DNA of 53,216 bases from Candidatus Woesearchaeota archaeon. GTDB lineage: Archaea; Nanobdellota; Nanobdellia; Woesearchaeales; WJIZ01. The notes below the pieces were generated by a model. The model was given only the letters and a program-made list of their open reading frames with translations. It searched no databases and had not been told where the DNA came from. The position numbers and the translations under genes were made by a program. The stretch spans positions 1 through 53,216 of the forward strand of contig JAAOYF010000028.1 in the NCBI GenBank assembly GCA_018221205.1. Direction: 5' to 3'. Positions 39,738-43,863 of the stretch are shown here, piece after piece; the first letter of the stretch is position 1, and the number at the start of each line of letters is the position of its first letter.

Positions 39738-39818
39738 AATTTTGCCAGAAGAAATATTCTTTATAAATGTTGTTAATTTTTGAGCTGTTAAGTTAGCGTC
39801 ATCTGAGGTATAAAAAAA

Positions 39819-40016
39819 TTAATCCATAAAATATTTTGAATATTTATTTTTTAGATGTGATAACTTTTCTTTATCAATCTGCTCTCCGAATTTCTTTATG
39901 ACAGTTAGATATGCATCTACTCTACCTAAATTACTTTCTGGTGCCGAATTATAATTTTCAATAACTGCTTCAAATTGTTCAACACAGTATTCAAAAATGT
40001 CTTTTGCATCTACCAT
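39819..40016 (-). CDS. 65-aa hypothetical cargo protein
   Basis: SD AGGAGGA; directly downstream of the AbrB gene. Confidence 0.7.
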   Translation of the reverse strand: MVDAKDIFEYCVEQFEAVIENYNSAPESNLGRVDAYLTVIKKFGEQIDKEKLSHLKNKYSKYFMD

Positions 40017-40025
40017 TTATTCCTC

Positions 40026-40187
40026 CTAATCCCTCTCAATAATCAGCTTTCCTTTCTTAACTTCAGCTTCCAGTTCTTCCCCTTCCTTCCAGCCCAATTT
40101 CTCTATGGTGCTAGGCTTTACAACAATAACATACTTAGCATATTCCTTATCCCCTACTTTTCGAGAAAGCTGTTTTTGGAGCTTCAT
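40026..40187 (-). CDS. 53-aa AbrB/MazE/SpoVT-family DNA-binding protein (not in ORF track)
   Basis: MKLQKQLSRKVGDKEYAKYVIVVKPSTIEKLGWKEGEELEAEVKKGKLIIERD; LGWxxGxxL motif. Confidence 0.85.
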   Translation of the reverse strand: MKLQKQLSRKVGDKEYAKYVIVVKPSTIEKLGWKEGEELEAEVKKGKLIIERD

Positions 40188-40195
40188 AATGGGTA

Positions 40196-40232
40196 TAGGT
40201 ACCTACTAGTATAAATAATTTTCGGTACCGAA
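40196..40232 (-). promoter_or_regulatory. abrB promoter bracketed by GGTACC palindromes
   Basis: TAGGTACCTA (40196-40205) and TTCGGTACCGAA (40221-40232) flank TTTATACT. Confidence 0.75.
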
Positions 40233-40321
40233 GGCTTTTACAAAGAGATAATTGAACTGTAGAGTAAAAGTCAGGAAAAGCTAAATTAATAAATAAATAT
40301 TTTTATTTTTAGAAAACATGT

Positions 40322-40489
40322 TTAATGTTTTGCTAATTCTTTAAATAATACTTCGTCTTCTTTAAACACTATTTCTTTAGCTACTTTAACCAATTCTAAT
40401 AACTTTTTATCGTTTTTAGAAATTTCATAAACTTCTTTTTCTGTAAGTTTATATGTATCCTTTTTTTCTTCATTTTTCATTTTCATCAT
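40322..40489 (-). CDS. 55-aa putative antitoxin-like peptide downstream of the Doc gene
   Basis: Overlaps the toxin stop; ends ..EDEVLFKELAKH, resembling Phd-type neutralising helices. Confidence 0.6.
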   Translation of the reverse strand: MMKMKNEEKKDTYKLTEKEVYEISKNDKKLLELVKVAKEIVFKEDEVLFKELAKH

Positions 40490-41090
40490 TTTCCAGAGTT
40501 ATAGTAACAAAAACACCATTTAAATAATTTGCTATATCTTTATCTTCAATCATAACACAATTCCTATCCAACCATTCTTTTATTTCTTGAAAAGTTACTT
40601 TACTTTCATATTTTGCGACCTCTAAAATAAAAGTAACTGCTTCATTAAATTGTATCCTCAAATGGCATTTATTGACTAACATAAAGATCTTTGCTATTGC
40701 ATAAGCCACTCTTTTATTACCATCTGTAAAGTAATGACGTTTAGCAAATTCATTCAAGGCAAAGGTTCCTATACTAGTGGGATTTCTTTGGTTCTTATAT
40801 TGATGGTTTATTAGTTTATAAGTTGAATTGTATATGCCTCCTCTATCCCTAATTCCATGTTCTCCACCACTTAATTCAATTATAGTGTCGTGAACCCTTA
40901 TAATCATCTCTTCCATTTTTAGTACAATGCCTTTGGATATTCTTTTTCTAGGTTTATTCCAATAAGGACTATGGCATTTTGGGTTTGGACAAGAATTGGG
41001 GTTTTGTTCTTTTCTTCTTTTCCAAGTATGGTAACATCTAAAACAAAATAGTATATTATCATTATTAACCATATGTGTATTGTTAACCAT
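40470..41090 (-). CDS. Doc/Fic-family protein with N-terminal zinc ribbon
   Basis: HYFTDGNKRVA Doc-type motif, HD..I..SGG..GIRD; CFRC..W...CPNPKC.SPYW. Confidence 0.9.
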   Translation of the reverse strand: MVNNTHMVNNDNILFCFRCYHTWKRRKEQNPNSCPNPKCHSPYWNKPRKRISKGIVLKMEEMIIRVHDTIIELSGGEHGIRDRGGIYNSTYKLINHQYKNQRNPTSIGTFALNEFAKRHYFTDGNKRVAYAIAKIFMLVNKCHLRIQFNEAVTFILEVAKYESKVTFQEIKEWLDRNCVMIEDKDIANYLNGVFVTITLENDENEK

Positions 41091-41132
41091 ATGTGGTTGG
41101 AAATAACCATATACATTTAAATCTTTCTATTG

Positions 41133-41166
41133 TATATTGTATGGTTATATCTAACCATACAATATA
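41133..41166. promoter_or_regulatory. perfect 15-bp inverted repeat upstream of the doc promoter
   Basis: TATATTGTATGGTTA-TATC-TAACCATACAATATA; further TAACCATA copies at 41066, 41084 and 41104. Confidence 0.75.
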
Positions 41167-41167
41167 T

Positions 41168-41263
41168 TAGCTACCTATCCTTTATAAGTATTTCGGTACC
41201 TAAAACTATACTTCTCAATAGATATGATTAGGTACCTAAGTATTTATATACGTTAGGTACCTA
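41168..41263. promoter_or_regulatory. divergent promoter pair with four GGTACC-type palindromes
   Basis: Cores at 41170 (GCTACC), 41195, 41231 and 41256; each pair is 25 bp apart around a TATA box. Confidence 0.75.
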
Positions 41264-41272
41264 CTAATACAT

Positions 41273-42169
41273 ATGAAACAAACAACCAAATGTAAGCATT
41301 GTGGCGAAAGCCACTACATAAAAAAGGGATTTCGTAAAACAGAAAATCGTGGCAAAATTCAGAAATATAAGTGCTTAGATTGTGGAATGTATTTTACTAG
41401 TGATGAAGGCTTTTATAGAATGAGAAACTCTGAAAAGAAGATAACTCAAGCCATAGACCTTTACTTCTCTAATCTCTCAAGCAGAAAGGTAAGAAACTTC
41501 TTTAGAAGGCATTTAGACCACAATGCAAGCCATATAACAGTATTGGATTGGTGTAGAAGGTATGTTCTAAAGGTACAGAAGTATGTGAATAAACTACACC
41601 CAGAATTAAGTGGAGAGTTCTATGCAGATGAAACAGAGATACCAAGAGGATGTAACACTAAAAGAAAAGGTGGCGATAAATTCTGGTGTGCGGTTGATTG
41701 GGGAACAAGATACATCAACGCTACTCTTTATTCACCTAATAATCAGAGTGTAGACGAAGCGGTTGAATTTTTGAAGAAAACAACAAAACACAGAAAGCCA
41801 AAATTTATCCAAACAGATGCAGCACAATTTTATCCAAAAGCAATGAAGAAACTTTTTAGTTCTTGTATCCCTCATGAAACTACATTCGGAAAAAGAACGA
41901 CAGTAGAACATCGTATTAACAACGTCAGAAAGACAGGAAAACATAATGTAAGGATTGAAACCGTATTCTCGAAAATTAAGGACAGAGTTGATGATTTTCG
42001 AGGGTTGAAAGCGTTATGGAGTGCCCCTATCCTCATGGAAGGCATTATCATACAACACAACTGGATTGAAGCCCATACAACAACAGGAAGGATACCCTCA
42101 GAACTGGCAGGGATGAAGATTGATACAGGGGCTAATCGGTGGTTAGGGATGATTAAATCTTCCTTATAA
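41273..42169 (+). CDS. IS6-family-like DDE transposase with N-terminal zinc ribbon
   Basis: CKHC..CLDC, HTH (LSSRKV..TVLDW), ADET, QTD, NVRIE, HN..H..P. Confidence 0.9.
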   Translation: MKQTTKCKHCGESHYIKKGFRKTENRGKIQKYKCLDCGMYFTSDEGFYRMRNSEKKITQAIDLYFSNLSSRKVRNFFRRHLDHNASHITVLDWCRRYVLKVQKYVNKLHPELSGEFYADETEIPRGCNTKRKGGDKFWCAVDWGTRYINATLYSPNNQSVDEAVEFLKKTTKHRKPKFIQTDAAQFYPKAMKKLFSSCIPHETTFGKRTTVEHRINNVRKTGKHNVRIETVFSKIKDRVDDFRGLKALWSAPILMEGIIIQHNWIEAHTTTGRIPSELAGMKIDTGANRWLGMIKSSL

Positions 42170-43052
42170 TTCTTAATTCCGTAAATTTTTTCTGTTTTTT
42201 CAGTTTTTCTAGCTCCTTTAAAATTATATCATTAATCTTTTTATTAAACTTTGAATTTTTTGAACTGACCTCTAACTTATCTTCTGCTATAGTAATCCAA
42301 TTAGCATAGGAATCTCCAAACATCCAAAAAAGGAAAGGAGAGTAGATTCTTATTTTACAAAAGTTACTATCATAGTCAAAAGAATCTTTAATTTTTAACT
42401 TCTTGTTCCCGAAAAAGCCCTTCTTGCTAAAAGACTTTCTAAAAATTGCTAAAAGGTCCCTATTTTTAGCTAATTTAAACCTATAAGTGTAGATATTTTT
42501 TAACAAATCTTTATTATAATGGAAATGAAGAGCTACGGAAATTGTAATTAGAATAAGCCCAACAAGCGCCATTGAATAAAGTATAATGTTATTTGAAAGT
42601 AGGTTAATTGCTTGAATTTCATATGGAAGTCTTTCTGTTAGTGTGAGTGCTGAAAAATTTACTTCATTCCTATTTAGAACAGTTGTATAAGCTTGTGTTT
42701 CACTAATCTTCAACAGAAATTGTAATCCTGCTTCAACCATAAGGGAAATCCCAATACCTAAAAGAATTCCTGTGAAGAAAGTATTAATTTTTCTCTTTTT
42801 TTGCTGTTCATCAGGAAGCGTTAAATGAATATCAGTAACCTTATTTTTAATATCATCCAAATCCTTCTTAATTTCGTTTGTGTTAGTTGCCACGAATATC
42901 CTCAATATGTTCACTAGACATACTAAGGTATTATACCCCCCTATTTTAATAATTATCTCATTTACATATATAAATCCAGCGAGTATAGCAAAAAAAGACC
43001 ATATCAATAAAAAAGGCAACAAGAAGTAAGTTATAACAACCCAGTTCTCCAT
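42153..43052 (-). CDS. cargo membrane protein, 2-3 TM (start may be GTG 42893)
   Basis: AT-rich ORF with hydrophobic segments; GAGGAT precedes GTG 42893. Confidence 0.7.
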   Translation of the reverse strand: MENWVVITYFLLPFLLIWSFFAILAGFIYVNEIIIKIGGYNTLVCLVNILRIFVATNTNEIKKDLDDIKNKVTDIHLTLPDEQQKKRKINTFFTGILLGIGISLMVEAGLQFLLKISETQAYTTVLNRNEVNFSALTLTERLPYEIQAINLLSNNIILYSMALVGLILITISVALHFHYNKDLLKNIYTYRFKLAKNRDLLAIFRKSFSKKGFFGNKKLKIKDSFDYDSNFCKIRIYSPFLFWMFGDSYANWITIAEDKLEVSSKNSKFNKKINDIILKELEKLKKQKKFTELRIIRKI

Positions 43053-43080
43053 CCGTAGGTGACGTTTACTTAACAGCCCA

Positions 43081-43863
43081 TTAATTTTTCAGACCAGGAT
43101 TTCCGCAGATCCTGATGGCAGTGACGAAGAGAATCAAGTAGAGCGTGATCGCGATCCAGGAGAAATAAACTCCCACCAGGGGTGATTGGACAATAAGATA
43201 GCTCTTGAAGTCAAACGGAATAGTAAGAACCTCGATGAGGATCATGATGGTCGCAGTATGGAACGAAAGAGAGAGCACTTGGGGGAGAGTCACGATGTTC
43301 TTCATCGGCTTGGCGAAGGCATAGAAGAGAAATGCCAGGGGATAGATGATCAGGACGTATTTGACCATATAGGTGAAGAAGAGGAAGACAAAAACACTGG
43401 GCAAGAGGAGCGTGAAGATCAGGATAGTAATTCTTTTTGAGCTTTCCCTGTCAGCGGTGAAATCATATTCACCGAGATCAATGGTCCCTTCCTGGAACCC
43501 TATATCATAGAACAGCCTTTCGTTCGTCAGGAGGAGCACTTCTGTGTCGATCTGTTTGGTATCGGTCGTGTCCAACGTTATAATAGGATTAGTATTGGGC
43601 AGGGAGACGGGCTGGGCAGTCTCGAAATCTGCCTTGATCTTCAGTTCTGCGATGTTCAAGAGAGCCTGATCGAGCTCAGTCTTTATCAGCAGCATCTTCG
43701 GAGCAGCGATGACCAGCATGAGCAGTAATGCGCTAAAGAGCACTGCGAGGAAATATGTTATTGCACTGGAGACTCTCCTCTCCCCTATATAGATATAATA
43801 CCTCGGATGCAGACTCTTCAGGATAAGAAAGATAAAATGCTTCAGCTTTGATCTAACGCCCAT
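43081..43863 (-). CDS. multi-TM membrane protein (DUF1189-like layout)
   Basis: TM, extracellular domain, then 4 TM; stop codon lies inside the TSD. Confidence 0.75.
   Translation of the reverse strand: MGVRSKLKHFIFLILKSLHPRYYIYIGERRVSSAITYFLAVLFSALLLMLVIAAPKMLLIKTELDQALLNIAELKIKADFETAQPVSLPNTNPIITLDTTDTKQIDTEVLLLTNERLFYDIGFQEGTIDLGEYDFTADRESSKRITILIFTLLLPSVFVFLFFTYMVKYVLIIYPLAFLFYAFAKPMKNIVTLPQVLSLSFHTATIMILIEVLTIPFDFKSYLIVQSPLVGVYFSWIAITLYLILFVTAIRICGNPGLKN

Follow-up and report, generated by a model that had tools for sequence, protein, structure and literature searches.

In the P1 Phd-Doc system (3K33, 3DD7), the antitoxin gene comes first and the antitoxin binds DNA with its N-terminal domain (PMC4803016). 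T382 of EF-Tu is the residue that Doc phosphorylates, and the corresponding site in eEF1A is modified by a eukaryotic Fic enzyme (PMC5851678). In E. faecalis, the antitoxin binds Doc through a C-terminal helix and dimerises the toxin (PMC13034048). The partners given for Fic/Doc proteins are AbrB, Xre, YhfG and Phd, with no ribbon fusion shown in the accessible part of PMC2701414, and accessory genes of this kind did not appear in the accessible part of PMC13343696. In type II systems as described, it is the antitoxin or a third gene that binds the operator; a toxin holding the operator-binding domain would reverse that logic. No description of such a ribbon-Doc architecture was found in the open-access literature searched.

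The locus described here, from a small-genome archaeon, lies in a window of 53,216 nucleotides (the whole stretch of DNA that was analysed). Compared with P1 Phd-Doc, its toxin gene comes first and carries the likely DNA-binding domain; the partner has no recognised one. The module comprised the following features:

40470..41090, minus strand: ribbon-Doc fusion ORF of 206 aa, recognised from the ORF list, TIGR01550 and PF02661 scores, homologues and a structural model.
40959..41045, minus strand: C4 zinc ribbon, residues 16-44 (C16-x2-C19..W23..C34PNPKC39HSPYW44), the likely operator-binding domain.
40992..40994, minus strand: codon of S33, a residue whose class predicts the variable base pair of the operator in covariation scans.
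40701..40736, minus strand: Doc-type catalytic motif HYFTDGNKRVAY (H119), located by the invariant residues of the alignment.
40322..40489, minus strand: likely antitoxin of 55 aa with a conserved C-terminal helix and no recognised DNA-binding domain, its ORF overlapped by the toxin stop by 20 nt.

The fusion protein passed the cut-offs of both TIGR01550 DOC_P1 (50.5 bits; cut-off 38.65) and PF02661 Fic (31.1; cut-off 24). A protein search recovered 136 homologues among 225 candidates, and the fusion is therefore not a product of chance; named homologues were mostly Pacearchaeota, Woesearchaeota, Nanoarchaeota and Aenigmarchaeota records. Among the 120 homologues listed, all 120 kept HxFxDGNKR and 104 had the ribbon pattern, most of the others being short calls that start after the ribbon. 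H119, F121, D123, G124, N125, K126 and R127 were invariant in 46 of 46 aligned sequences, and the motif HYFTDGNKR fits the Doc pattern HXFX(D/N)(A/G)NKR (PMC13034048). The four cysteines of the ribbon suggest that it binds zinc. In the AlphaFold model (mean pLDDT 81.7), residues 59-179 matched P1 Doc, 3dd7_A (Z = 15.8, rmsd 2.1, 117 aligned), the next Fic protein scoring Z = 8.8; identity to P1 Doc was about 20%, and the model had an extra C-terminal helix at residues 183-203. The closest solved sequence was E. faecalis Doc, 9VZC (E = 4.2e-6). AMPylating Fic enzymes carry a motif with GNGRxxR; the fusion has GNKRVAY and so lacks it.

The first ATG of the toxin gene (41090) is the start adjacent to the operator, for which reason a start at the second ATG (41072) was dropped. 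An 18-nt tandem duplication at the gene start (41061-41095) copies half an operator arm and adds six N-terminal residues. One sequencing run (probably DNA, and possibly the source sample) showed no differences from the locus. The full fusion was patchy in the phylum, occurring in 6 of 401 genomes (a tally that takes in the unpublished genomes G243 and G359, which bear on nothing else reported here), and a complete fused locus (L004) was present in a record titled Patescibacteria. Close relatives of the fusion were not found on viral contigs, where the best 80 of 129 matches were all at or below 36%; phage records contained generic Doc only, the ribbon fusion not being found among them.

The peptide gene lay downstream of the toxin in 30 of 31 de-duplicated fused loci (counting the frameshifted L027) and upstream in none; the contig of the 31st ended first. 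No Pfam or NCBIfam family matched the 55-aa peptide, a PDB search with its profile returned nothing meaningful, and the TIGR02609 model gave no match at E up to 10, the control L064 scoring 82.4. Members of the peptide family were 33-61 aa long and variable at the N-terminus, with A37, D45, L48, L52, A53 and K54 invariant in 32 aligned sequences. When the family profile was aligned with the AbrB-type antitoxin (TIGR02609) encoded ahead of doc in L064, the match covered its last 31 residues (pairwise E = 3.7e-4, probability 36%); the peptide thus resembles the Doc-binding tail of known antitoxins and may itself bind Doc. Peptides of the same type occurred 3' of ribbon-less Doc genes (L093-L102, L029, L053, L126) and upstream of ribbon-less doc (L121-L124), and therefore a partner without a DNA-binding domain is known from either gene order, whether the ribbon is present or not. 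The original prediction had read the 206-aa ORF as a C4 ribbon joined to a Doc-family domain with an intact motif, which is borne out by its coordinates, family scores and homologue conservation, and the overlapping 55-aa ORF as a putative antitoxin without a DNA-binding domain; the latter agrees with the missing family match, the variable N-terminus and the failure of any peptide column to track the operator, while the antitoxin role gains from the linkage and from the likeness to the C-terminal helix of the TIGR02609 Doc partner.

A family of 61-62-aa ORFs accompanied bacterial-type doc genes, with a tail, ED..LL..LA, as in the peptide and no NCBIfam match above cut-off (L030; L032, where it is directly upstream of doc; L034, L038, L043-L045, L048-L050, L054, L061, L062, L067, L072 and L074). 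The possibility that the peptide is a ribbon-helix-helix DNA binder was rejected, because the operator is retained where a short version has no strand (L019), and none of the peptide columns follows the operator.

The promoter of the fusion gene contained two palindromes flanking a predicted TATA box:

41090..41113, no strand: candidate operator O2, a 9-6-9 palindrome between TATA box and start codon with 8 of 9 arm pairs.
41115..41127, minus strand: TATA box (41115-41121) with a purine-rich BRE-like stretch, predicted from sequence.
41133..41166, no strand: candidate operator O1, a second copy 48 bp upstream of O2 with perfect 15-bp arms (core 41138-41161).

With up to 2 mismatches allowed, the 1.28-Mb assembly contained no such site besides O1 and O2. 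Archaeal promoter spacing was the basis for the predicted transcript start, and the distance from TATA box to start codon implies a leaderless transcript. Fused loci shared a layout of palindrome, BRE/TATA-like box, palindrome and ATG, the second palindrome copy often lying about 47 bp upstream. The ATG-anchored palindrome had a mean of 6.8 of 9 arm pairs, compared with 2.3-4.9 at 71 other offsets, and when arm partners were shuffled none of 10000 shuffles reached the 75 of 88 cells that were paired (mean 43). Pair 7/18 was complementary in all 22 loci with at least 6 arm pairs (22 of 27 loci), and came in three pair types. Scored blind to class, the site reached 13-17 in 29 fused loci and 9-13 in 11 ribbon-less Doc+peptide loci. 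In L118, where the ribbon had decayed, the palindrome was not evident (one case, judged by eye). An RNA hairpin was considered and discarded, given that the palindrome sits between the TATA box and the predicted start and has an upstream twin; its position suits a DNA operator at which initiation would be blocked.

New here are the promoter palindrome itself and the prediction of its variable pair by ribbon residue S33. Residue 33, which precedes the third Cys, was S, T or N where pair 7/18 was G:C, Y, F or W where it was A:T, and V or I where it was C:G. When sites were chosen blind to class, this rule held in 26 of 29 fused loci and in at most 20 after shuffling; the 26 of 29 is not an out-of-sample figure, because the rule came from inspecting by eye the loci that were later scored, and the polar class was widened to include N once L276 and L089 had been seen. 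Under the same blind choice it broke in L026, L090 and L091, three of the four members of an outlying clade. Two loci fetched after the rule had been fixed both fitted it, one having a perfect site and the other (L282) a site that overlaps the gene start. When 237 columns of toxin and peptide were scanned, a leave-one-out accuracy of 1.00 in 24 core loci was reached by residue 33 alone, the next column, like the best peptide column, reaching 0.70; across all 28 loci (the site of L090 set by eye, L027 left out) the corresponding values were 0.93 and 0.64. Neighbouring ribbon columns did not track the pair, and the nearest neighbour predicted the class linked to residue 33 at 0.46 by whole protein and at 0.71 by the rest of the ribbon. 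The upstream palindrome scored at least 13 in 17 of 24 loci and had the same pair as the downstream copy in all 17, and a two-residue insertion just after residue 33 was found with all three classes. The best tree needed 9 class changes, which together with the nearest-neighbour values speaks against plain ancestry; only 1 independent pair was on strongly supported branches, so that a formal co-evolution test cannot reach significance; ribbon and operator lie within about 100 bp of each other and could therefore move together.

A stand-alone ribbon gene of 42-60 aa was common in the phylum, and all scored copies had V, I or L at the position of residue 33. In their promoters (n = 76) the predicted half-site occurred 217 times against 132 +/- 11 in shuffled sequence (other classes, z = 0.5 and 1.3), and inverted pairs at spacer 4 occurred 20 times against 0.3, counts that are inflated by related loci. 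The 9-6-9 site was not found at stand-alone ribbons, where the spacer was 4 instead of 6, and fused ribbons were without an N-terminal stretch that is conserved in the stand-alone ones. Taken together, the residue-33 rule, the matching half-sites of stand-alone ribbons and the ribbon-less Doc loci without the site indicate that the ribbon is likely the operator binder, and that the toxin, not the antitoxin, likely acts as DNA-binding repressor. The proposal that the toxin carries the regulator thus has good, if indirect, support in the conserved palindrome of the promoter, the variable pair of which goes with residue 33 of the ribbon. As a whole, the original prediction was sustained in part and contradicted nowhere; the operators, the stand-alone ribbons and the carrier transposon described below had no place in it.

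Of 72 stand-alone ribbon loci with room for a neighbour, 47 had a DDE transposase in divergent orientation, compared with 8 of 26 fused genes (transposase or fragment). At L162 (G000 C28 70100-71500) and about 75 loci in the range L106-L194, a stand-alone ribbon was divergent to a DDE transposase, IS6-like or of another kind, and genes that looked methyltransferase- or restriction-like by eye often came next; the window's own genome had one such locus. Searches of Pfam and NCBIfam with the ribbon gave DUF7573, Zn_ribbon_8 and TIGR02605 as best matches, all under cut-off; no DNA-bound structure was matched among solved structures, and the ribbon model yielded nothing informative in fold searches (best E = 1.0 with Foldseek, best Z = 2.5 with VIA). 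PHROGs yielded one unnamed family, matched by 6 of 49 members, and the ESM Atlas unnamed clusters at 0.97.

Other ribbon architectures also came up in a profile search. In P0182 and P0221 the ribbon was fused to a different Doc-like clade with the motif HxFASxNRR, ribbon-less members of which occurred in 30 of 401 genomes; these proteins suggest a second fusion event, and none of 25 loci fetched as DNA had the ribbon, so that a fusion of the P0182/P0221 type was not placed. Two to four tandem ribbons were present in P0169, P0226, P0228, P0234, P0235, P0242, P0261 and P0264, one of them with a MUG113 domain; judged by eye, others had parts resembling HTH or HNH.

It is fairly probable, in our assessment, that the locus is a type II toxin-antitoxin module in which labour has been redistributed, the ribbon of the Doc toxin being the repressor and the peptide likely only neutralising. 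The ribbon would likely repress transcription by binding the palindromes on either side of the TATA box in its own promoter. That it reads the operator half-site, with residue 33 setting base pair 7/18, is very probable, and we are more confident still that the C-terminal helix of the peptide would fill the Phd groove of Doc. A more tentative step, which falls somewhat short of probable, is that Doc is joined into a dimer by the peptide, as by the Phd helix in E. faecalis, which would put two ribbons on the inverted repeat, such that antitoxin loss would free the toxin and lift repression at once. The alternative with most in its favour is that the ribbon binds the operator alone or through self-association of Doc, which would give plain negative autoregulation with the peptide only neutralising. 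In keeping with this alternative, matching sites occur at stand-alone ribbons, where Doc and peptide are both missing, and no peptide column predicts the operator (best 0.70); set against it, the spacer of 4 at stand-alone and 6 at fused ribbons and the N-terminal stretch absent from the latter suggest another dimer scaffold, and E. faecalis Doc is dimerised by the antitoxin helix (PMC13034048). We consider it rather doubtful, if deserving of serious weight.

Downstream of DNA binding, the Doc domain of the redistributed module is predicted to be an active kinase, which we hold to be probable, and that it would phosphorylate aEF1-alpha at T415 and stop translation is marginally favoured. In an alignment with the aEF1-alpha of this genome, T415 is the counterpart of T382 in EF-Tu and the Thr is kept, so that aEF1-alpha, already suggested as the target by the original prediction, is compatible with sequence conservation; this is weak evidence, since the EF-Tu Thr is conserved for other reasons. 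Doc might instead be active on another substrate (an archaeal, viral or host-cell protein) with the ribbon still the repressor. In favour of this are the identity of about 20% to P1 Doc, the extra helix at 183-203 and the fact that an archaeal Doc target was not found in the literature searched; against it stand the conserved target Thr, the fit to the Doc pattern (PMC13034048) and the eukaryotic Fic enzyme that modifies the equivalent eEF1A site (PMC5851678), and we judge another substrate unlikely.

The module sits within a 3300-bp IS6-like element (39781-43080) of 31% GC, compared with 43% in both flanks. IS6 family elements generate an 8-bp target duplication; terminal inverted repeats and an 8-bp duplication were both found here, together with further genes:

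39781..39804, plus strand: left terminal inverted repeat, with 8-bp target duplication at 39773-39780.
39819-40016, minus strand: 65-aa ORF, element passenger, no significant Pfam match.
40026..40187, minus strand: AbrB/MazE-like ORF of 53 aa with its own promoter; weak PF04014 and TIGR01439 matches, under cut-off.
41273..42169, plus strand: IS6-like DDE transposase, divergent from the fusion gene (PF13610, 45.2 bits; cut-off 27).
42153-43052, minus strand: 299-aa protein with hydrophobic stretches, element passenger, no significant Pfam match.
43057..43080, minus strand: right terminal inverted repeat, 20 of 24 positions identical to the left, with target duplication at 43081-43088.

The transposase scored 68.8 bits with NF033587, under the cut-off of 125. 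Among gene neighbours of fused loci only the peptide recurred in most; the AbrB-like ORF was near 6 of 29, marking it as an element passenger and not a constant part of the module, and another small ORF family was near 2 of 29. ORFs of roughly 90 aa, winged-helix-like by eye, adjoined two fused loci, upstream in L001 and downstream in L002. GGTACC at 40198, 40224, 41195, 41231 and 41256 formed a second operator type, at the AbrB-like ORF's own promoter and that of the transposase, and a TCGGT[AG]C-type site was present in 5 of 27 fused loci, all 5 of them loci with the AbrB-like ORF; these elements are probably a separate circuit for the transposase. It could be argued from the tight ribbon-promoter linkage, the poorly resolved tree and the occurrence of an AbrB-like gene near 6 of 29 and a transposase near 8 of 26 fused loci that the palindrome is bound by some other protein, be it a host regulator, the AbrB-like passenger or the IS6-like transposase, with residue 33 hitchhiking alongside the adjacent promoter. 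This is quite improbable, because the site is kept in most loci with neither gene nearby, the assembly contains just two sites of this kind, ribbon columns next to residue 33 fail to follow the site, stand-alone ribbons obey the rule as well, and the AbrB-like gene goes with another type of site. That the pair is a regulatory Fic enzyme without toxicity and its small cofactor, in place of a toxin-antitoxin system, is very unlikely given the patchy occurrence (6 of 401 genomes), transposon carriage, near-obligate overlapping partner and motif intact in all 120 homologues listed.

The likely role of the module is to keep the mobile element or to act in abortive defence. As to its origin, a small ribbon gene of the kind that commonly lies divergent to transposases in this phylum probably fused to a doc passenger whose antitoxin was already without a DNA-binding domain, which would be the simplest history. 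Beyond this locus, we tentatively propose, as an idea that may well fail, that an unrecognised 30-residue ribbon serves as a one-residue-code DNA reader on DPANN transposon promoters and, where fused to Doc, makes the toxin a repressor and the antitoxin a dimerising corepressor, paralogues being insulated by paired changes of residue and base pair. As a candidate DNA reader the ribbon is very small, and its specificity would follow a rule of three states; such a function would account for an abundant 'hypothetical' gene of DPANN archaea, in which gene regulation is barely known. The module offers a direct test case for the coupling of antitoxin loss to derepression, and, if true, action of Doc on aEF1-alpha would extend the kinase to the archaeal/eukaryotic-type elongation factor.

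The toxin is by profile and fold a member of the Doc family, and the module is predicted to work like a Phd-Doc type II system. It shares with P1 Phd-Doc the Doc fold (Z = 15.8), the type of catalytic motif, a small helical partner and palindromic operators in the promoter; two canonical features, the antitoxin upstream (0 of 31 fused loci) and a DNA-binding domain at the antitoxin N-terminus, were absent. The toxin-binding peptide of E. faecalis Phd ends in ELYKELVT, similar by eye to VLFKELAKH here, while its N-terminal domain binds DNA at a single palindrome (PMC13034048) and the archaeal promoter often has two. With TIGR02609 doc_partner, an AbrB-type antitoxin upstream of doc (e.g., L064), the likeness lies in the C-terminal 31 residues that align with the peptide profile; the peptide differs in having no AbrB domain, no match to the model and a downstream location. 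The rubredoxin-like ribbon of PF0610 (2GMG; PF23470) matches the ribbon profile weakly in sequence (E = 0.0032), under cut-off and without the HxW motif in the alignment, and we know of no residue-to-base rule for it. YjjJ, a HipA-like kinase, is likewise a kinase toxin with an N-terminal putative DNA-binding domain, but has another kinase fold, an HTH and not a ribbon, and is monocistronic without an antitoxin, the role of the domain being only suggested there (PMC8262856). In tripartite systems (omega-epsilon-zeta, paaR-paaA-parE) regulation has also moved off the antitoxin, to a third gene (PMC4803016), whereas the archaeal regulator is fused to the toxin and no separate regulator gene was constantly linked to the pair in fused loci. 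The nearest precedents, in the accessible parts of these sources, are the N-terminal HTH of YjjJ and the tripartite systems.
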